Assembly (NCBI GenBank): GCA_963662945.1
Contig: OY759974.1
Coordinates: 2,433,316 to 2,497,315 of the forward strand
Direction of reading: 5' to 3'
From: Arcobacteraceae bacterium
GTDB lineage: Bacteria > Campylobacterota > Campylobacteria > Campylobacterales > Arcobacteraceae
DNA length: 64,000 nt
Part shown: positions 1-9,426 of the stretch, in pieces
How positions within the stretch are numbered: position 1 is the stretch's first letter
How the letters are laid out: each line of letters begins with the position of its first letter
Program-made: the position numbers and the translations under genes
The notes under the pieces: generated by a model
What the model saw: the letters and a program-made list of their open reading frames with translations, nothing else
Databases searched by the model: none
Told to the model about the DNA's origin: nothing

Positions 1-988
1 TGAGCAAAATGAAGCATTAAATGCACTTTTAAATCCAGATTTTTCTAAAGTAAATTATCCAGATTTTAGTGATGTAGATTCTATGGCAACAAGAGATTCA
101 AATCACAAAATATTAAATGCAATTGCTGGTGCAGTTCCATCATTTTTAGGTGGAAGTGCAGATTTAGCACCATCAAATAAAACTGAGTTGATGGGACTTG
201 GTGATTTCCCAAGAGGAAGAAATATCCACTTTGGTATCAAAGAACACTCAATGGCAGCTATTACAAATGCTATGAATATTTATGGATTATTTAGAGTATT
301 TAGTGCAACATTCTTTATCTTTAGTGATTATTTAAAACCAGCTGCAAGAGTAGCTGCACTTTCAAGTATCCCACAACATTTTGTATGGACACATGATAGT
401 ATTGGAGTAGGGGAAGATGGTGCAACTCATCAACCTATCGAGCAACTAAGCCAATTTAGAGCATTACCAAACTTTTATACATTTAGACCTGCTGATGCTA
501 CTGAAAATATTGAGTGTTGGAAAACTGCATTTACACTAAATGCACCTACAGCTTTTGTATGTTCTAGACAAAAGTTAACTAACTTAAAAGGGCAAAAAGT
601 AGTTGGAGATGTTTCAAAAGGTGGATATCTTGTAACAAAACACGATAAAGCAGATGTAACATTTATGGCAAGTGGGAGTGAAGTATCACTTTGTCTTGAA
701 GCTGCTAAGTTATTAGAAAAAGCAGGAGTATATGCAAATGTTGTATCTGTTCCTTGTTTTGATTTACTTGTAGAGCAAGATATAGATTATATTGATGAAA
801 TCATTGATATGAACAATACTTTTGTAGTAGCTGTAGAAGCTGCAACTGCTATGGAATACTACAAATTTGCTGATGTGGTTATCGGTATGACTGGATTTGG
901 AGAGAGTGGACCTGCTGAGGAACTTTTTGAAAAATTTGGTTTCACACCAGAAAAAATCGCTGCTAGAGTTCAAGAGATAGTAGCGTAA
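1..988 (+). CDS. tkt: Transketolase, C-terminal part (5' end outside window)
   Basis: Frame open from window start; motifs GGSADLAPSN, HFGIKEH, THDSIGVGEDGATHQP, ASGSEV. Confidence 0.97.
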   Translation, partial: EQNEALNALLNPDFSKVNYPDFSDVDSMATRDSNHKILNAIAGAVPSFLGGSADLAPSNKTELMGLGDFPRGRNIHFGIKEHSMAAITNAMNIYGLFRVFSATFFIFSDYLKPAARVAALSSIPQHFVWTHDSIGVGEDGATHQPIEQLSQFRALPNFYTFRPADATENIECWKTAFTLNAPTAFVCSRQKLTNLKGQKVVGDVSKGGYLVTKHDKADVTFMASGSEVSLCLEAAKLLEKAGVYANVVSVPCFDLLVEQDIDYIDEIIDMNNTFVVAVEAATAMEYYKFADVVIGMTGFGESGPAEELFEKFGFTPEKIAARVQEIVA

Positions 989-1004
989 CTCTTAAAATGG
1001 CAGA

Positions 1005-1059
1005 TATCAATAATGCAGTTGTGATTGTCTCAATCGCTGCGTTATTGATAGGCTTTTTT
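1005..1059 (+). terminator. Long hairpin with U-tract after tkt, probably terminating between convergent genes
   Basis: TATCAATAATGCAG (1005-1018) pairs with CTGCGTTATTGATA (1037-1050); inner GATTG/CAATC; TTTTTT follows. Confidence 0.7.
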
Positions 1060-1089
1060 CTTTATATTATTTTTTAACTTATTAAAATA

Positions 1090-1623
1090 TCACTTTGGTC
1101 TAAATCCTATTAAATTATCATTTGTCTTTTGAGTATCTTGTAAGATTTGATGTAAGAGTTCAAAAGCTTCATCTATTCTATGAGTATTGTAGTTTTGATG
1201 TTGTTGGTCAATTTTAATCGTTTTTTCTATCTCTTCTATTCTCTGTGCTATATCTTTATAGTTTAAAGCAAATTCTCTCATTTTTGTAAATGTTCGCATG
1301 ATAGTAAGAGTCACTTCTGTAGCAACTTGACTTTTTAACACCGTTGCCAACATATACACTCCCTGTTCTGTAAAAACTTTAGGTAAATATTTTCTATCTT
1401 TTAAGCTTTCTTTAAAGGTCGCATTTTGCGACCTTAAGATATCTACTTCTTCCTTTGTCATCTCAAAAAATAAATCGCAAGGAAATCTTTCAGGATTTCT
1501 TTTAACAGCTTCATTTATCCTTTTTGTTTCTACATTGTATAAATTTGCTAAATCACTATCTAACATAATATTGAGATTACGAACTTTATATATCTTTGTT
1601 TCTATATTATTTACAATTTCCAT
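1090..1623 (-). CDS. ORF6N-domain DNA-binding protein
   Basis: MLDSDLANLYNVETKRINEAVKRNPERFP and PKVFTEQGVYMLATVLKS are typical ORF6N motifs; ends IGF. Confidence 0.9.
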   Translation of the reverse strand: MEIVNNIETKIYKVRNLNIMLDSDLANLYNVETKRINEAVKRNPERFPCDLFFEMTKEEVDILRSQNATFKESLKDRKYLPKVFTEQGVYMLATVLKSQVATEVTLTIMRTFTKMREFALNYKDIAQRIEEIEKTIKIDQQHQNYNTHRIDEAFELLHQILQDTQKTNDNLIGFRPK

Positions 1624-1710
1624 ATCTGATACTCCTATTTTTTCTAAAGTATCTTATCATCTTTTTTAATTTGAGATTGAAAATATGGCATATTGTAATA
1701 TTTATGTTTT

Positions 1711-1944
1711 TTAGCAGAGTGTTTTTTGTCTGTTTATTTTTTCTTCTATAGTTTTAGTTGTATTATTAATATTGTCGTATAATGATTTTCTTTGGTCATG
1801 TGTAATATCTTCTGATAGTAAATATTCTAATATGTTTAATGTTGTTTCAACAAGTATATAATCCTCTTGAAGGTCTTTTTTATATTTTTCAATTCTTTGT
1901 ATTGATGATTTTATTTTATCTTTCAAAATCATTCTTTTTCTCAA
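1711..1944 (-). CDS. Small hypothetical helical protein (start may be ATG at 1932)
   Basis: ORF only; overlaps the 3' end of the upstream ORF as in an operon. Confidence 0.4.
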   Translation of the reverse strand: MRKRMILKDKIKSSIQRIEKYKKDLQEDYILVETTLNILEYLLSEDITHDQRKSLYDNINNTTKTIEEKINRQKTLC

Positions 1945-2143
1945 TTTCTTTTAAGTAGTATTCAAGTACAAAAATTACATTATCATTTTTTTCTAACCAT
2001 TTATGTATCTCTTTATTTGAAGCATTTGTATTTAGTAAAATATTTATCTTTTTTAATAATATTTTAGTGAATAGATATTTTTCTTGGATTGTTTCATAAT
2101 TTTTATCTATTCTTTGTTTTAGGTTTATTATTGTTTGTTGCAA
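1916..2143 (-). CDS. Small hypothetical protein
   Basis: TTG start preceded by AAAGG RBS; divergent from the XRE gene. Confidence 0.45.
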   Translation of the reverse strand: MQQTIINLKQRIDKNYETIQEKYLFTKILLKKINILLNTNASNKEIHKWLEKNDNVIFVLEYYLKEIEKKNDFER

Positions 2144-2170
2144 ATTTTAGCCTTTGAAAAATATTTCAAA

Positions 2171-2244
2171 TTTATCCTATAGGATAAAGATTTTTTAATT
2201 ATATAACTATAAAGTTTAATTTTAAATTAACTCTATAGGATAAA
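2171..2244. promoter_or_regulatory. Putative operator pair in a divergent promoter
   Basis: Perfect 18-bp palindrome TTTATCCTATAGGATAAA (2171-2188); CTATAGGATAAA repeated at 2233-2244 over the XRE gene RBS. Confidence 0.65.
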
Positions 2245-2248
2245 TAAG

Positions 2249-2500
2249 ATGGAAACCGATTTTAGTAACTCAACAAAAGAAGAAATAAAAAAGTTTTATG
2301 AAAATATTTCAAAAAAAGTAAAGTTTTTTCGAGAAAGTAAAAATATAACTCAATTGGATTTAGCTTTGGATATAGGGATAAAGTCTGTAGCCTTTTATTC
2401 AAATTGTGAAAATAATAAATATGATAAACATTTTAATTTAGAACACTTGTATAAAATTGCCAAGTCTTTGAAGGTAGATATTAATGAGTTTTTTAATTAA
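2249..2500 (+). CDS. XRE/Cro-C1 family helix-turn-helix regulator
   Basis: VKFFRESKNITQLDLALDIG...YSNCEN...NLEHLYKIAKSLKVDINEFF HTH_3 pattern. Confidence 0.88.
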   Translation: METDFSNSTKEEIKKFYENISKKVKFFRESKNITQLDLALDIGIKSVAFYSNCENNKYDKHFNLEHLYKIAKSLKVDINEFFN

Positions 2501-2520
2501 ATGTTATGATTATTTAGTAG

Positions 2521-2655
2521 GTATAACGTCTGAACTGAAGGACGATGACCCCATCAATATGTTTGCTGGCTTCTTTTTTAACTAATACATAAAAGCTAAT
2601 TTAGGCTTAAATATTTGCAGGGGTCACGCGTTCTTTTTCCTGTATTTTGTTATAT
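2521..2655 (-). repeat. attC-like site of cassette 4 (135 bp)
   Basis: + strand GTATAAC (2521-2527)...GTTATAT (2649-2655); internal arms TGACCCC/GGGGTCA. Confidence 0.75.
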
Positions 2656-2677
2656 CTTATATAGTTTATGCTAATTA

Positions 2678-3034
2678 TTACAGTCTATCTGCATAACAAG
2701 TCCCATTGTCTTTTTTACCCCATTTATTCTCAATATAAATATATTCTCTATCCTCAGGTTCATAGTGATGAAATTTATAAGTGTAACTATCATTTTTATA
2801 TATAATGATTTCAGTTTTGAAATCATCATATTCTGATAATTTCTTTGAAAATGAATCAACTTTCCAAACGGTATATTTATTGTTAACAAGAATTTTATTA
2901 CTATCTAAATATCTACCAAATACTTTTATAGTGATATTGTCACCACTTTTCATTTTACATTCTAAATTATATATAAATGCCTTTGCATTTGTAAAAATTC
3001 CAAAGATTAATAATATGCTTAATAAGAACTTCAT
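2678..3034 (-). CDS. Cassette 4 ORF: secreted hypothetical protein
   Basis: Sec-type signal peptide MKFLLSILLIFGIFTNAKA; AAAAGGA RBS; two Cys near the termini. Confidence 0.75.
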   Translation of the reverse strand: MKFLLSILLIFGIFTNAKAFIYNLECKMKSGDNITIKVFGRYLDSNKILVNNKYTVWKVDSFSKKLSEYDDFKTEIIIYKNDSYTYKFHHYEPEDREYIYIENKWGKKDNGTCYADRL

Positions 3035-3074
3035 TTGAATATATCCTTTTATAAAGTAAATAGCTATTTTGTAG

Positions 3075-3207
3075 ATATAACGACCGAGTTGAAAAACAAG
3101 GTGTTATTTTTAATAAGATGTTCAAATCTTCATCTAAGTAATTTTACAAGATAAAGCTTAAATAATTGTAGTGTAACCTTGTTTTTCTTTCCAACGATTT
3201 GTTAGAT
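3075..3207 (-). repeat. attC-like site of cassette 3 (133 bp)
   Basis: ATATAAC (3075-3081)...GTTAGAT (3201-3207); perfect 12-bp arms GAAAAACAAGGT/ACCTTGTTTTTC. Confidence 0.85.
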
Positions 3208-3208
3208 T

Positions 3209-3691
3209 TTATAATATCTCAATATATGAATTATCTTTTTTTATTTCTTGTCTTAAATTTAGAATAAATTCAAGTTTTAATTTTCTGACATATTGTTTTA
3301 AATATTTTTTTGGCAAAAACTTAGTCCACATAGGTAAATCAAATTTATCATTTAAATAATATTTATCAAAATATATTTTAACAATTTTTAAATTTTTTCC
3401 TTTTGTGTTTGTTGGAATAAAACATCTCCATGGTTTTTGATTATATAATATATTATTTTTAAAAGGTGTTGATTCATTCATACTAATTTGTTGAACTTTT
3501 CCAGACCATTTAAATACAAGAACTACACCTTGATTTTGAAATTCCTGTCCGTAGTTATACCCTTGCTTTATAGAACAAAAACAATTTAAACAAGAATCAC
3601 CATTATAAATATTTCTTGAAAAAGGTATAAATTGTTTGCTTTTAATAATATTTAATGCAGAAGTTAAATTTGTAATATGATAAATATACAA
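3209..3691 (-). CDS. Cassette 3 ORF: hypothetical protein with ADP-ribosyltransferase-like N-terminal YHxT motif
   Basis: Start re-called to TTG at 3691 (AAAAGGA RBS 6 nt upstream; track start 3775 lies inside attC); MYIYHITNLTSALNIIKSKQF. Confidence 0.7.
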   Translation of the reverse strand: MYIYHITNLTSALNIIKSKQFIPFSRNIYNGDSCLNCFCSIKQGYNYGQEFQNQGVVLVFKWSGKVQQISMNESTPFKNNILYNQKPWRCFIPTNTKGKNLKIVKIYFDKYYLNDKFDLPMWTKFLPKKYLKQYVRKLKLEFILNLRQEIKKDNSYIEIL

Positions 3692-3732
3692 TGATAGTCC
3701 TTTTTTATTACATAGTAAAATTTGATTTATAA

Positions 3733-3802
3733 ATCTAACGTTTGACTTGAGAAATAGTTGTGCCCGCAGGGTCAACTATTTCTCTCCAAGGTTTTGTTAG
3801 AC
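3733..3802 (-). repeat. attC-like site of cassette 2 (70 bp)
   Basis: ATCTAAC (3733-3739)...GTTAGAC (3796-3802); arms GAGAAATAGTTG/CAACTATTTCTC; centre TGCCCGCAGGGT. Confidence 0.9.
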
Positions 3803-3813
3803 TTTTAATACAA

Positions 3814-4608
3814 CTATCCAATGTATAAATCATTCACCATTAATGGTACTTTGTGTAATTTATAATCAAGTTTTTTCATTAATTTTTCTTGCTCGTTTTG
3901 AATAAAAGGTTCTTGTCTTCTTTGAGTATCTTGTTTATATGTCCTAATTTCTTGTAGCATCTCTCGATTATGCTCTTCTTGTCCTCTTATCATTTCTCTT
4001 AATTGACGCTGATTATGTCTAATTTCATCTTGACCATTTAATAAATCAATGTGAGTTGGTTGCTCATTATGTATATGTATCTCTTGATTTATATTTATAA
4101 TTTGTCTATCTTGAGCAAAGATAGAATCTAATGATGTATTAAGTCCATATATGATAACTCCTTCTGCCAAAATAGCTAACACTTTTTTTCCATTCAAGTG
4201 ATACTTGTGTGGCGAATTTAATTCAATTTTTGTAAAGGACAATGCTTGTTCATCAACATAAATTGGTTCATACTTTCCATGACTATTCCCACACATAATA
4301 ATTGGTCTTTGGAGGCTGTGAAATTTTTTCCAAAATGATTTAGCATCTCTCTCTTTACTTTCAAGAAATACAAAATCATTATAGTTTTCAATAGTGTATT
4401 TTTCAGCTTCTTTTGGAACTGTTGAATATAAATCAAAAGAACGAGTAGCAATGATAAAATCTGAATCATGTGCACCATCTGCATATAGTTTTTCCATGCT
4501 TTCAAGCATAGATAATTTCATATAATATTCACCAAGGAAAGTAACTGTATGTCCCATCATCCAGTGAGGTTGAATTGTTGGTGATTGGAAAACTGTATTA
4601 ATATTCAT
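3814..4608 (-). CDS. Cassette 2 ORF: hypothetical protein with C-terminal coiled coil
   Basis: 264 aa; AAAAGGA RBS just inside the core site; Q/E/R-rich helical tail. Confidence 0.75.
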   Translation of the reverse strand: MNINTVFQSPTIQPHWMMGHTVTFLGEYYMKLSMLESMEKLYADGAHDSDFIIATRSFDLYSTVPKEAEKYTIENYNDFVFLESKERDAKSFWKKFHSLQRPIIMCGNSHGKYEPIYVDEQALSFTKIELNSPHKYHLNGKKVLAILAEGVIIYGLNTSLDSIFAQDRQIININQEIHIHNEQPTHIDLLNGQDEIRHNQRQLREMIRGQEEHNREMLQEIRTYKQDTQRRQEPFIQNEQEKLMKKLDYKLHKVPLMVNDLYIG

Positions 4609-4626
4609 TTATTATGTCCTTTTGTA

Positions 4627-4695
4627 GTCTAACGGTTGAAGTGAGCTAATAAATTGCCCGCAGGGTAATTTATTAGCTCCTCTGATTTGTTAGAC
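4627..4695 (-). repeat. attC-like site of cassette 1 (69 bp)
   Basis: GTCTAAC (4627-4633)...GTTAGAC (4689-4695); arms GAGCTAATAAATT/AATTTATTAGCTC; centre TGCCCGCAGGGT. Confidence 0.9.
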
Positions 4696-4733
4696 ATTAG
4701 TAAAATTTTTCTATATCTATAATTCATTAAGTT

Positions 4734-5657
4734 TTATAGAATTTTTTCTCTATTGATTTTTTCTTGATTTAAAGTAAAACCTTTGTTATTAAACACAGTT
4801 ATTTGTAAATAATCATTAGATTGGTCATCAATATAGTCTCTAAAATTAATAAAATTATTTTCTTCAATAATTTTAAAATCATTACTTATAATTTTTGAAC
4901 TATTATTAGACTCTAAAACTATAGATAAACTTTTAATTAAAAAATATGTAAGTGATTCAGTTATTTTAATTACTGTATTAACCATAGGGTATTCATATAC
5001 ATCAGAATCTATGAGTAGTATATTATCTTCTGTATCTTTAAAGCATGAAAAACAACATTGAATGTATGGTTCAACAGATGATAAGTGGGTAAGTATGTTT
5101 CTAAAGCTTTTTTTATTTCCTTTTTCAAGTAAATTAAATATATGTGATTTTAATTCATCTATTTCTTTTTGGAGTAATTTTATATTATCCTTTGAATGAT
5201 TTTTAACATATGATTCAAATAATTCAAAGTCTGATTGCTTTGGCTTTTTTAATTTTCTAGCAGGTTTTCCAAAATTTTTATAAACAAAGTTGAAAAAGAT
5301 ATCTAAAGTGGATTTAGAATGCATAATAAAAGATCCAAAATCAGATGCAATTGTTACTTCATTAAATAATAATAATTCATTGTTCTCTTTATCTTTTATT
5401 GTTGTTGTGTTATGAGATTGTTTTATTAAATTAATAGATTTTTGTCTGATTTGATAAGAATAATATAGGATAGTAAACATTTTTTCTTTAAATGAGTTAG
5501 TGTCTTGTAAGCTAGAACTATCTAATTCTTTATGTACTTCTTTGTACATATTTAATGCATTTTCATTAGCAAAACCTTCAAAATATGGATATAGTAAGCT
5601 TCTATTATAACTCGTATAGTTTTCACCATTTTTATTAAAATATAAATTCAAGTTCAT
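4734..5657 (-). CDS. Cassette 1 ORF: HEPN-like (RxxxxH) putative RNase
   Basis: Helical DFGSFIMHSKSTLDIFF segment followed by FRNILTH, resembling Cthe_2314-like HEPN domains. Confidence 0.65.
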   Translation of the reverse strand: MNLNLYFNKNGENYTSYNRSLLYPYFEGFANENALNMYKEVHKELDSSSLQDTNSFKEKMFTILYYSYQIRQKSINLIKQSHNTTTIKDKENNELLLFNEVTIASDFGSFIMHSKSTLDIFFNFVYKNFGKPARKLKKPKQSDFELFESYVKNHSKDNIKLLQKEIDELKSHIFNLLEKGNKKSFRNILTHLSSVEPYIQCCFSCFKDTEDNILLIDSDVYEYPMVNTVIKITESLTYFLIKSLSIVLESNNSSKIISNDFKIIEENNFINFRDYIDDQSNDYLQITVFNNKGFTLNQEKINREKIL

Positions 5658-5662
5658 CCTTT

Positions 5663-5691
5663 GTCTAACTCTTTATTGAAGATACATTATA
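5663..5691 (-). promoter_or_regulatory. attI-like core site (GTTAGAC) with candidate cassette promoter -10 box
   Basis: Minus strand reads TATAAT(5691-5686)-16 nt-GTTAGAC(5669-5663)-AAAGG-ATG; no attC-type stem upstream. Confidence 0.6.
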
Positions 5692-6095
5692 TATAAAACA
5701 CCCTGAAAATCAATAAATAACATACATAAAAAATGTTGTTTTATTTATTCGTTATAAAGCCTTTAAATAAAAGTCTTCTTACACATTTTACTGTAAAAAA
5801 CATTGCAATTTAAGATATTTTTTAAATAAATTTTAAGTTTTTGCTACAATTTTTATGTATGTTTAATGTCGATATTTCGATGATAATAGTACATAATGTA
5901 TGTATATTAAGACAATATCGTAATAAACCTGCATTATGTTAAATATATTGGGAGAGATATTATAAGTAAATAAAATCGAATGAACTGTAACCAAACTTTA
6001 CAAAAATATTCTCTTATAATCAATCTAAATCCTTATTAGCAACACTTTATCTCTCTATGCTATAATATCTCATAATTAACTATTAGGAGAGCAGA

Positions 6096-6608
6096 ATGAT
6101 GGGATTTACAAAATTTAAAGGTACAGATGTAACATTAGAGGGAACACAACTAGAAGTTGGGGATATGGCTCCTGTTGTTACTATAGTTGGGGCTGATTTA
6201 GAAGATATTGAAGTTGGTGGTTCAAATGACCAAATACAACTTATCATCTCAGTACCATCTCTTGATACAGCAACTTGTGCAGCTGAAACTCGAAGATTCA
6301 ATGAAGAGGTTGGGGCACTTGATATTTGTACAACAACTGTTATCTCTATGGATTTACCATTTGCAAGTGCAAAGTTCTGTACAACAGAAGGTATAGATAA
6401 CCTTGAAGTTGGAAGTGATTATGTTGATAAAGAGTTTGGAAAAGCTTATGGTGTATTGATGACTGACAATAAACTAAAAGGTTTACTTGCTAGAACAGTT
6501 TTTGTAGTAGATAGAAATGGTATCATAGTATATAAACAAATAGTTCCAGAAGTTACAGCTGAACCAGATTATGAAGAGGTTTTAGAAGCGATTAAAGGGG
6601 CAAGATAA
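6096..6608 (+). CDS. tpx: Thiol peroxidase (atypical 2-Cys peroxiredoxin)
   Basis: SVPSLDTATCAAETRRFN, ISMDLPFA..FC, GLLAR; extended -10 TGCTATAAT at 6058-6066. Confidence 0.95.
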   Translation: MMGFTKFKGTDVTLEGTQLEVGDMAPVVTIVGADLEDIEVGGSNDQIQLIISVPSLDTATCAAETRRFNEEVGALDICTTTVISMDLPFASAKFCTTEGIDNLEVGSDYVDKEFGKAYGVLMTDNKLKGLLARTVFVVDRNGIIVYKQIVPEVTAEPDYEEVLEAIKGAR

Positions 6609-6609
6609 G

Positions 6610-6999
6610 GTGTCTTATCAGTCTTGGCACCAAGAACACGCCCAAAAGCATAAAAAGCTTCTAGAGAAGCTAAAAGATTTAAGTGACAATGAGATTATAG
6701 AGTATTTTAGTTTTGAAAATATGGTTATCAAAGAACCAGATTTTTGCCCTTTATACAAAGAGAATAGAAAATGTCACAATATGGAAAATCTGAATTGCTA
6801 TTTTTGTGCTTGTCCAAACTTTAGAGTAGAGGAAAAACAAAGCACTTGTTCCATAAAAAGTAAAGATGGTGGAAGTATAAAGTCTCCTGATGGTTTTATC
6901 CATCAGGATTGCTCAAAGTGTACAGTTCCCCATAAAGTAGAATATGTCAAAAAACATTTTGATAGAGATTGGTTAAAAGTTATGAAGAATAACTTTTAA
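6610..6999 (+). CDS. Cysteine-rich small-domain (zinc-finger-like) protein
   Basis: FCPLY...CH...NCYFCACP...DCSKCTVPH. Confidence 0.8.
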   Translation: MSYQSWHQEHAQKHKKLLEKLKDLSDNEIIEYFSFENMVIKEPDFCPLYKENRKCHNMENLNCYFCACPNFRVEEKQSTCSIKSKDGGSIKSPDGFIHQDCSKCTVPHKVEYVKKHFDRDWLKVMKNNF

Positions 7000-7611
7000 C
7001 TATTTCTGTACTTCCCAAGTAACTTCAACTAAAAGCTTTGTATCTTCATAGATTTTTCCAGTAAAGATATCCCCAATACTATAAGTTCCTACACCTTTTG
7101 GAGTACCACTCATAATAATATCTCCATCTTCAAAGCTCATAAATGTTTGAATCTCTTCTAACATCTCTAAAGGTTTATATATCATCAGATCATAGTTTGC
7201 GTATTGGACAAGTTTATCATTGATAAAAAGTTCTAGTCTTAGTTTTGTAAGATCACCATTAAACGTCACAAAATCACTTAAAACAGCACTTCCATCAAAA
7301 GCTTTTGCTCGCTCCCAAGGCCAGCCTTTCTCTTTAATCTTATTTTGTATATTGGCTTTTGTTAAATCAAGTCCAAATCCTATACCAGAGATTTGCTTGT
7401 TTTGAATGAGAAAACAAATTTCCCCCTCAAATCTTGTATCTGGTGTGAAGTAGTGTAGTTGATTTGTTATAGCAGAGTTTGGTTTGTTGAATACTACCAT
7501 TGTATCAGGTGTTTCATTGTTTAACTCCTTTATGTGTTCTACATAGTTTCTCCCTATGCAGATTACTTTTGATGGTGTTATACAACTATCGTTAAATACT
7601 AGGGTTTTCAT
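7000..7611 (-). CDS. Fumarylacetoacetate hydrolase family protein
   Basis: KVICIGRNYVEH, GLDLT, WERAKAFD, GDIIMSGTPKGVG. Confidence 0.95.
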   Translation of the reverse strand: MKTLVFNDSCITPSKVICIGRNYVEHIKELNNETPDTMVVFNKPNSAITNQLHYFTPDTRFEGEICFLIQNKQISGIGFGLDLTKANIQNKIKEKGWPWERAKAFDGSAVLSDFVTFNGDLTKLRLELFINDKLVQYANYDLMIYKPLEMLEEIQTFMSFEDGDIIMSGTPKGVGTYSIGDIFTGKIYEDTKLLVEVTWEVQK

Positions 7612-7713
7612 ACTTTATACATCCTTTTAGGTTACCATATTGTATAATGGTAACCATATTTTTAGTATTATACTATAGTTAAGATGTATATTTGTTATAG
7701 ATGATTATCACTT

Positions 7714-9426
7714 TTACCACTGTTTATCTTCCTCTTTTTTCTCTTCATCATCTTCATTAGATATATCAGTTGGTTGATTGTATTTTCCACTTTTCATAGT
7801 ATCAATTCTTTGTTGTATTGCATCTAACTTTGATTCAAAACTCATACCACTAGCTGTTGCAGAATCTGTATCATTTTGTGAAGAATCTTCTTCTCCTACT
7901 TCAATTACTGCTTGTCCATTGAGTCTTTTTTCCAGCTGTAATAGTGCTTTTTCTATAGTTTTTATTTGTTTGTTTATATCTTCATCTGAAATATCTGAAT
8001 TTCCATTGTTTTTCTCTCTAAGAAGTTTTCTAATCTCTTCAAGTAGTTGTTCTATGTATTCTAATTCTGAAACTGTATAACCAGTTTTTAAAACAGAAAC
8101 AATATCTTCAACCAATTCTCGTAATTTTGCAAGTGGATCTTCATCATTGAGGCTTTCTCCATTGAGTGATAGATAGGTTTTATTTAAACCATTGTACATA
8201 TTGAGTATCTCTTGATAATACTCTTTTGTCTCTTCATCTGGTGCTGTATCTACTTTGATTTGATAGCTTGCAATCTGTTTTTGAACAAATTGTCCAGCAT
8301 CTTCTTCACTGTAATCCATAACTTGTAATTCAGGATAAGCTATAAGTTTCTCACTATGTTCAGTACCTGTTAAATCATACATAAAAGTATTTAAAACTTT
8401 TTCATCATCGATTTTCTTTACTGTGTTAAATATCGCTTTATTAAAGTTTGTATTTTCACTAATAGCTGTAGTACTCATCAAAATACCAGCTTTTCTATCA
8501 CTTTTCATCAATGTTTGTTTTATATAGTTGCCATCTTCATCTTTTTGCATTACAAAATCTTTGAGTTGGACAATTTGATCATAAGAAAGGTTTTCTATCT
8601 CTTCATAAGTAACGTATTTGTCCTTTACTATGGATTCATAAATTGCTCTATCTCTTTCACTTATTTCATTTGTAGTGTTTTTAACTTCTGTGAGAGTATT
8701 TGTATCTTCCACAGGAGGTAATTCTGTATTTGTTGTATTATTAGCAGGTGTTGTAGTATTTGTTCTTGTATAGCTAGATAGAGTTGCTTCATTTTCTTTG
8801 ATCTTATTATAATTTTTTGTTAGTAGTTCAAAAAAACTACTTATAGTATTTTTAAACTCAGTAGTTGAATGGGTTTTATTTTTTGGGTCAAGTATAGTTT
8901 CAACACTGTTTTTAATATCTTCATAGGTGTAGTTTTGATATGAGTATACAATCTCTCCATCAACTATTTTAATATTTTTTGGAAACATTGTAATTGAAGC
9001 CATCATAACTTCTCCAAAATCCATAGAGTTAAAGGTTTCTACAAGGGCTTGTTTTGTTGTACTATCCATAGATTGAGGTATCAAACTTTGTGTTTTCCCA
9101 ATGCCATCTTCTACTATTCCATCTTTATTAAAATCATATTTTTCATAGTGATGTACAAGTAGGTTGTATGCACCTTCATCGCTTAAAGAATCTACATCTA
9201 TCTCATTTACAAGTCGTGTATAGTTTTGTAATGTTGAGAGTTCATCTTTTGATAGAGAATTTAAAAACTCTTTTGCATTTGAAACAGTGACATTTTGTGA
9301 TTGGGCTTCTTCATATATCTTTTCAAAACTTTCTTTAAACGGTTCTCTCACTTCATAAAAGCTATCCGCCATTTTGAGATTTTTCATAATAGATACATGT
9401 TCAGAATAATTTGTATTTGTAGTCAT
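7714..9426 (-). CDS. Large acidic hypothetical protein, two parts joined by a T/N-rich linker
   Basis: 570 aa; AAAGGAG RBS; no signal peptide; EF-hand-like DFNKDGIVE. Confidence 0.8.
   Translation of the reverse strand: MTTNTNYSEHVSIMKNLKMADSFYEVREPFKESFEKIYEEAQSQNVTVSNAKEFLNSLSKDELSTLQNYTRLVNEIDVDSLSDEGAYNLLVHHYEKYDFNKDGIVEDGIGKTQSLIPQSMDSTTKQALVETFNSMDFGEVMMASITMFPKNIKIVDGEIVYSYQNYTYEDIKNSVETILDPKNKTHSTTEFKNTISSFFELLTKNYNKIKENEATLSSYTRTNTTTPANNTTNTELPPVEDTNTLTEVKNTTNEISERDRAIYESIVKDKYVTYEEIENLSYDQIVQLKDFVMQKDEDGNYIKQTLMKSDRKAGILMSTTAISENTNFNKAIFNTVKKIDDEKVLNTFMYDLTGTEHSEKLIAYPELQVMDYSEEDAGQFVQKQIASYQIKVDTAPDEETKEYYQEILNMYNGLNKTYLSLNGESLNDEDPLAKLRELVEDIVSVLKTGYTVSELEYIEQLLEEIRKLLREKNNGNSDISDEDINKQIKTIEKALLQLEKRLNGQAVIEVGEEDSSQNDTDSATASGMSFESKLDAIQQRIDTMKSGKYNQPTDISNEDDEEKKEEDKQW

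Follow-up and report, generated by a model that had tools for sequence, protein, structure and literature searches.

The window analysed here, a 64,000-nt stretch of an Arcobacteraceae chromosome, contains a cassette array headed by a non-coding leader at a place where an integron would normally carry its integrase gene, intI. This arrangement raises the question of whether the leader is a stand-alone attachment and expression platform served by a remote integrase, or what remains of an integron that has lost its intI. An initial annotation, made from the sequence alone, proposed the former, i.e., an attI site with a cassette promoter (Pc), and reasoned that recurrence of the leader at the head of other arrays would indicate a distributed integron system rather than a decayed integron. 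The reading that we favor overall, without holding it firmly, is a decayed integron whose attI/Pc platform seems to have stayed in use.

The leader occupies a 438-nt gap between a minus-strand ORF (4734-5657) on the left and a plus-strand gene with a Redoxin domain (6096-6608) on the right (Table 1). The core, the TATAAT, the ribosome site with its ATG, both pairs of inverted repeats and TACATTAT were all found where the initial annotation had placed them. The TATAAT (5691..5686, minus strand) lies 16 nt ahead of the G of the core, and an AAGGA ribosome site and an ATG at 5657..5655 open the 307-aa ORF of the first cassette. The 14-bp repeat pair is perfect and is the longest inverted repeat within 5663-5945; its length was reached in 2 of 300 dinucleotide shuffles of the leader (mean 9.3). 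The second pair, ACATAATGTA (5891-5900) and TGCATTATGT (5930-5939), is complementary at 9 of 10 positions, TACATTAT is located at 5683-5690, and the ATGTATGTT motif is also present twice near the core in direct orientation. The promoter TTGATT-16-TATAAT is the joint-best match (10/12) in 5560-6140, tied with one other site, and the scan of that region gave no overall enrichment (10 sites vs 6.0 +/- 2.5 in shuffles). Rfam gave no credible family in window 1-8000, with one chance-level snoRNA match.

Table 1. Features of the window and leader copies elsewhere in the genome. Positions are those of the window unless they begin with C1; identities and lengths of leader copies are from blastn of 5640-6100 against the genome.
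Feature	Position	Strand	Remarks
Transketolase gene, 3' part, flanking	2..988	+	
ORF6N-domain gene	1090..1623	-	far array end, common to sister species
Array tail without attC	1712..2515		HTH_3 gene (2249-2500, +) and two small minus-strand ORFs
attC 4, long form	~2520..2660	-	weak model match, 21.4 bits; fold not significant
Cassette 4 ORF	2678..3034	-	118 aa, no Pfam family
attC 3, long form	~3070..3205	-	by eye, ATAACG...GTTAGAT; partial model match, 19.6 bits; fold not significant
Cassette 3 ORF	3209..3721	-	170 aa as scanned, no Pfam family
attC 2	3733..3800	-	covariance model 80.2 bits (by construction, training site); fold z = -4.4
Cassette 2 ORF	3814..4608	-	264 aa, no Pfam family
attC 1	4627..4695	-	covariance model 95.6 bits (by construction, training site); single-stranded DNA fold z = -7.9
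Cassette 1	4696..5665	-	ORF 4734-5657, 307 aa, no Pfam family
attI core GTTAGAC	5669..5663	-	crossover G/TT between 5669 and 5668; leader homology stops at A5666
attI-proximal block, 28 nt, TATATAATGTATcTTCAATAAAGAGTTA	5666..5693	-	nearly invariant; six genome copies at <=3 mismatches
Putative cassette promoter Pc, TTGATT-16-TATAAT	5713..5686	-	10/12 consensus match; predicted start ~5679-5677
Arm 1 of 14-bp inverted repeat, AACATACATAAAAA	5719-5732		AACATACAT motif
Arm 2 of 14-bp inverted repeat, TTTTTATGTATGTT	5850-5863		ATGTATGTT motif
Conserved leader, very probably attI, Pc and former intI promoter region	5666..5954	-	from column conservation and homology
Probable relic of intI ribosome site and first codons	5951..5975	+	GGAGAG 5951-5956; ATA 5962-5964 for ATG; then AGT AAA TAA
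Thiol-peroxidase-type gene (Redoxin domain)	6096..6608	+	chromosomal context outside the element
Leader copy	C1:3447		86% identity, 297 nt; E = 1.7e-81
Leader copy	C1:1876612		76% identity, 292 nt
Leader copy	C1:1981777		80% identity, 162 nt
Leader copy	C1:1431323		73% identity, 160 nt
intI-linked leader copy			62% identity, 290 nt; most divergent copy

The array behind the leader was examined with a covariance model of attC built from five short attCs of the genome (22 base pairs), and attC 1 and attC 2 are two of these training sites. The aligned short sites have the imperfect palindrome, the RYYYAAC...GTTRRRY ends, the unpaired spacer and the inner stem that define attC, and attC 1 and attC 2 fold as imperfect hairpins in single-stranded DNA far better than shuffles; for the long pair, z is about -1.8. 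Of these two long sites, attC 4 has ~81% identity with the attC that opens the intI-linked array of this genome (G000 C1:547491-547624). Simple regex scans of the genome for attC were too noisy or too strict, and the whole-genome search with the model scored 150 of 601 candidates. With two strong and two weak attC matches within 2516-4699 and intI ~605 kb from the window core, the array falls under the definition of a CALIN, i.e., two or more attC sites that lack an intI in their vicinity; in the survey of PMC4889954, about half of the genomes with CALINs are reported to encode an IntI elsewhere.

The 307-aa protein of the first cassette was found in none of the 183 other family genomes, and a search of these genomes with window 1712-5665 (two candidates scored per genome) returned mostly attC sites and the HTH region, which makes it hardly informative on the spread of the cassette ORFs. 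DNA contigs of four runs over 900-6700 gave no cassette polymorphism, with 0 differences across 1266-5879, and contig joints in these runs reflect only the other leader and attC copies of the genome. The tail segment 1712-2515 is missing in the sister species and 82% identical to a locus of genome G132, and its HTH part is widespread in the family. A second ORF6N-domain gene, truncated where the window copy is full-length, ends the array at the PhoH flank (L012 6649-6894, -).

As to the remote integrase, the genome is a single contig of 2,497,315 bp with exactly one integron integrase match above the TIGR02249 cut-off (C1:545688-546632; 403.1 bits vs cut-off 265), so that the claim of no intI adjoining the leader holds. 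The match covers model positions 1-313 of 315 without stops, and every other tyrosine recombinase match in the genome scored at most 56.5 bits. IntI residues 1-318 align with the Vibrio IntI4 structure 2a3v, including the IntI-specific extra region near patch III, and the gene's locus has its own spacer and three cassettes. The window thus lacks the intI adjoining attI that defines a complete integron. SOS control of integrons is known elsewhere. It is unlikely here because a search of the genome for a LexA DNA-binding domain found none; the palindrome TACATnATGTA has 11 genome-wide occurrences.

Within the genome there are six leaders, one adjoining intI and five orphan, and the suggestion that the leader might recur was borne out, since it heads four other cassette loci without intI. 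The 28-nt block ending in AGTTA has six copies at <=3 mismatches, where 0.14 would be expected by chance even at <=5. At every copy, the homology stops at GTTA; beyond it the sequence is unrelated, with a ribosome site and ATG. The window leader shares scattered blocks with the intI-linked spacer, with 26 of 28 positions identical in the core block. The orphan at C1:3447 lies beside a class II aspartyl/lysyl/asparaginyl-type tRNA synthetase gene and heads three cassettes; that at C1:1876612 is followed by an ORF of 512 aa and an attC scoring 28.5 bits; that at C1:1981777, beside a PhoH/PIN gene, heads two ORFs (one a GNAT acetyltransferase) and an attC whose 88.8 bits are those of one of the five training sites of the model. 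The fifth orphan, at C1:1431323 beside an M23 peptidase gene, heads one lipoprotein-like ORF, and no attC was found behind it by the covariance model. Altogether, at least one attC at E < 0.01 stands behind four of the five orphan leaders, two of which (C2 and C4) involve training sites scored by construction.

What these leaders derive from is seen in the relatives. The leader (window 5664-5961) matches 118 of 184 family genomes at E <= 0.001, in 18 of 22 genera, typically at 80-86% identity over query positions 3 to 286-291; since four candidates were scored per genome, copy numbers from this search are lower bounds. Among the 19 best leader loci from other genomes, each with ~1.5 kb of flank, four have a full intI (321 aa, 84-88% identical to that of this genome) starting ~5 bp past the distal end of the leader, one has a broken intI, three retain N-terminal pieces (residues 1-121, 1-35 and 1-29), and 11 have nothing of intI detectable within 1.5 kb. 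In the relatives' complete integrons, the leader therefore fills the spacer between intI and the first cassette, as expected of attI by homology. Among 24 distinct homologous leaders aligned, column conservation is 0.77-0.97 over 5669-5953 and drops outside, to 0.60 toward the cassettes and to 0.52-0.65 toward the former intI; it ends right after AGTTA, at the GTT crossover, with unrelated cassettes beyond. The conserved unit, 5666 to ~5954, is slightly longer than the 5663-5945 first marked.

On the cassette strand, the canonical junction reads ...TTTTTTACCCATAACACACCTCC followed by the leader; reverse-complemented, it gives the ribosome site and start codon of intI. In the window, the junction is TTTACTTATAATATCTCTCC, identical to the canonical GGAGGTGTGTTATGGGTAAA region at 14 of 20 positions in an alignment read by eye, and this mutated stretch of ~20 nt is probably what is left of the ribosome site and first codons of intI. 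The initial annotation had expected no remnant of intI at the leader. At the protein level this stands, as tblastn of IntI against 5600-6100 gave only non-collinear, stop-containing matches, none of them credible (best E = 0.014); the probable start relic is all that is left of the gene there. Window 5666-5954 is very probably the attI/Pc leader of a chromosomal integron, left behind when intI was deleted, because the leader is the spacer beside full intI in relatives, because the intI truncations there are graded, and because of the ~20-nt relic. For the same reasons, the opposition of a distributed system to a decayed integron is false. In genome G115 (L020, C29), a canonical leader stands with about four intI codons left at a locus flanked by threonine synthase, where the present genome keeps its intI (L009 5580-6650), so that the two form a natural before-and-after pair. 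Deletion of intI that spares the leader has therefore happened repeatedly.

The -10 TATAAT is essentially invariant in the 24 leaders. The first repeat keeps 8-14 of its 14 complementary positions and every change is one-sided; in the second, 6-10 of 10 stay complementary (7 in 13 of the 24 leaders), and no compensatory change was found in either among the aligned leaders. Because the changes are one-sided and pairing is poorly kept, the repeats have the look of a binding-type motif, ATGTATGTT, copied in opposite orientations, rather than that of a selected hairpin, and the copies may be where IntI binds. The window copy alone among the 24 leaders has a deviant segment of 21-24 nt at about 5738-5760, the reverse complement of which resembles the consensus, and which may reflect micro-inversion or decay.

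Across the family, 120 of 184 genomes contain the core pattern (25 nt, <=2 mismatches), with ~350 matches (150 listed and 200 unlisted) against 29 for a reversed control, and there are up to 18 copies per genome, then 13 and 8; the present genome has 6. IntI above the cut-off was found in 44 of the 184 genomes, usually as one copy, and orphan platforms therefore far outnumber integrases. Genus g2 has the core in 25 of its 44 genomes, and the five TIGR02249 matches listed for this genus are short C-terminal ones below the cut-off. Some genomes have platforms without a detectable intI, e.g., G138, with six cores at 99% completeness. Persistence of the core therefore needs no resident integrase.

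The history of the locus can be followed in the genus. In two members, a spacing of ~90 bp between the transketolase and peroxidase genes represents the empty site, and the leader stands beside the peroxidase gene in 2 of 28 genus genomes only, the present one and that of the sister species, G131; none of the 28 was found to have intI there. G131 has the same locus (transketolase, array, leader, peroxidase) with the same deletion junction, relic and spacing to the peroxidase gene, and intI was therefore already lost in the common ancestor. The two are collinear over 1-1711 and 5666-7010 of the window at ~85% identity. Between 1711 and 5666, only two attC sites match; the ORFs of the G131 array are different ones, and it contains three or more attCs scoring 51-66 bits. 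A similar break is seen at the platform flanked by PhoH/PIN, where G000, G131 and G138 share flank and leader (87-90%) until 1-3 nt past GTTA, and their first cassettes are unrelated. Because homology breaks at the crossover twice, as insertion by an integrase or attI x attC deletion would leave, we consider it fairly probable that cassettes were exchanged at the orphan platform in trans after intI was lost.

This interpretation has to be weighed against an inert fossil, i.e., an ordinary CALIN that kept its attI and has undergone no recombination since intI was lost. Differences between species would then come from homologous replacement of the whole array, with the leader and the far flank as anchors, or from import of arrays from strains with intI at the locus. 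The origin by intI deletion is clear and fits such a fossil, as do the orphan cores in genomes where no intI was found, the private altered segment of the window copy, and the description of CALINs as degraded integrons in PMC9024848 and PMC4889954. The closest pair adds to this, with the leader no more conserved than neighboring non-coding DNA: identity between the window and G131 is 84-88% in the leader vs 83-90% in adjacent non-coding DNA (four-fold sites: 67.5% in the peroxidase gene, 85.6% in the transketolase gene), and no extra constraint on the leader is detectable in this pair. Nevertheless, two independent orphan platforms lose homology within 1-3 nt of the GTTA crossover, which is the signature of site-specific rather than homologous exchange, the 28 genus genomes offer no donor with intI at the peroxidase locus, and the first cassette is unique to this genome. 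On balance we think the inert fossil less likely than not, though it deserves serious consideration.

Other explanations deny that the leader is attI at all. The ~290-nt repeat could be a regulatory RNA gene, or one end of a different mobile element, that just happens to adjoin cassettes, for which one might cite its multiple copies, 80-86% identical across genera, and the horizontal spread apparent in four copies from four genera that are 92-95% identical. This is very unlikely, given that the repeat adjoins the start of intI at four of the relatives' 19 loci and pieces of the gene at another four, that its opposite edge is always a GTTA junction with a ribosome site and ATG behind it, and that there is no Rfam family match, no compensatory change in the repeats, and no transposase or terminal repeat at the copies read. 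Finally, IntI is described as able to insert cassettes at non-att GTT sites (bioRxiv 10.1101/2022.09.11.507474), and the array might have arisen by off-target insertion at a chance GTT (an attG-type secondary site), the likeness of the leaders being AT-rich noise. We give this essentially no credence: it is refuted by the second copy, 86% identical over 297 nt (E = 1.7e-81), by six cores where 0.14 are expected, and by the leader's position beside intI in relatives.

The intI gene very probably lay directly to the right of the leader and was deleted almost exactly, leaving ~20 nt of mutated ribosome site and start. If this decayed integron has stayed in use, its working can be pictured as follows. 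IntI made elsewhere would bind the conserved core block and recombine an incoming attC with G/TT at 5669/5668, inserting or removing cassettes, and the TATAAT 16 nt upstream would transcribe whichever cassette stands first, such that one integrase would serve several docking and expression sites in the genome. Cognate recognition of the window leader by the resident IntI is assumed here, and it speaks against this picture that the genome's intI-linked leader has an identity of only 62% with that of the window outside the core. We suggest tentatively, falling somewhat short of believing it ourselves, that the family runs an integron of one integrase and many platforms, in which orphan attI/Pc leaders at housekeeping loci are live docking sites. 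Equally tentative is the corollary that the serving integrase might be made elsewhere or brought in transiently, with many first cassettes expressed at once, each from its own Pc, rather than the head of one array alone. If so, several cassettes, including defence-type SIR2/TIR ones, could hold the expressed first position simultaneously. Should an orphan attI capture in trans, counts of "active" integrons that depend on an adjoining intI would underestimate the capacity for capture. The family offers a recognizable attI/Pc sequence, a visible series of intI deletions and natural before-and-after pairs at fixed loci, and capture in trans by an orphan attI is therefore directly testable.

Relative to known systems, the window element resembles a CALIN in being an attC array without intI in a genome that encodes IntI, with an origin by integrase loss, which is one of the origins proposed for CALINs in PMC4889954. 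CALINs are usually treated as degraded integrons in the account of PMC9024848, and in the 2016 survey of PMC4889954 attI was not searchable, as its sequence was unknown for most integrons; these sources describe attI sites outside class 1 as poorly characterized. Compared with CALINs as those accounts present them, the window retains attI and a putative promoter and shows a visible deletion junction, several platforms stand at housekeeping loci in one genome, and comparison of genomes points to turnover of cassettes at platforms of this type after they had lost intI. In Xanthomonas, according to the account in PMC12444791, an ancestral integron sits at a fixed locus, deletions or stops have frequently disabled IntI, and CALINs occur at conserved positions and are said to be mobilizable in trans. 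Arrays there appear frozen once intI is inactive, with the same cassettes across a pathovar, whereas orthologous orphan platforms here have unrelated cassettes; moreover, the repeated unit here is the attI leader itself, with up to 18 core copies per genome.

The canonical platform (intI, PintI, attI, Pc; e.g., Vibrio cholerae) likewise has a GTT crossover, the IntI-specific region, and cassette ORFs mostly without known families, and its promoter toward the first cassette would correspond to the putative Pc here, but the window has no adjoining intI, and the -10 of that putative Pc falls within the conserved attI block at 16 nt from the crossover. Insertion at attG sites, as presented in bioRxiv 10.1101/2022.09.11.507474, also puts cassettes outside a complete integron by an integrase acting from elsewhere; the sites there are degenerate GTTs without a conserved leader, whereas a 290-nt homologous attI region stands ahead of every array here. 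Cassettes of the Delta-attI type, in the description of PMC12901181, similarly involve attI sequences, extra or partial, that stand elsewhere than next to the integrase, but within arrays of class 1-type mobile integrons rather than as whole attI/Pc leaders at separate chromosomal loci. In the literature searched, no paper was found that treats chromosomal integrons in this family or attI platforms lacking intI. The present case is set apart from the descriptions cited by a leader that is identifiable and retained, its multiple copies in genomes and family, and orthologous platforms with differing cassettes.

Several observations were made at individual loci. The array at C1:3447 (L010, just past the window end) has consecutive defence-type cassettes encoding SIR2_2-domain and CAP12/Pycsar TIR-domain proteins (2286-3425 and 1029-2144, both -) and terminates in a truncated attC. 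A hairpin, TTCCACCTC-N4-GAGGTGGAA, is found at array ends in two genomes (L009 9150-9500; L037 8878-8905), at L009 within an ORF-less stretch of 350 nt with two CTAACAAAAC boxes and no matching GTTA end; Rfam gave no family in L009 or L037. The leaders L027, L032, L033 and L035, from four genera, are 92-95% identical to one another and have in common ~65 nt of extra flank, which resembles a diverged start of intI with a palindrome behind it; a platform that was already orphan may thus have spread horizontally in recent times. Among the core matches listed for G048, none of five is near its intact intI (C1:2181057-2182001), which may have its own attI of another type. G066 has three intI copies with in-frame stops, each beside a core copy (C15:4807-5736, C2:166389-167318 and C23:29443-30372), and looks like a duplicated integron with a pseudogenised integrase. 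Among the matches listed, a variant core, TATAATGTATTACTAATAA(A/G)TAGTT, is seen in G030, G050, G055, G056, G083, G086 and G087, and it may represent a second attI subtype.
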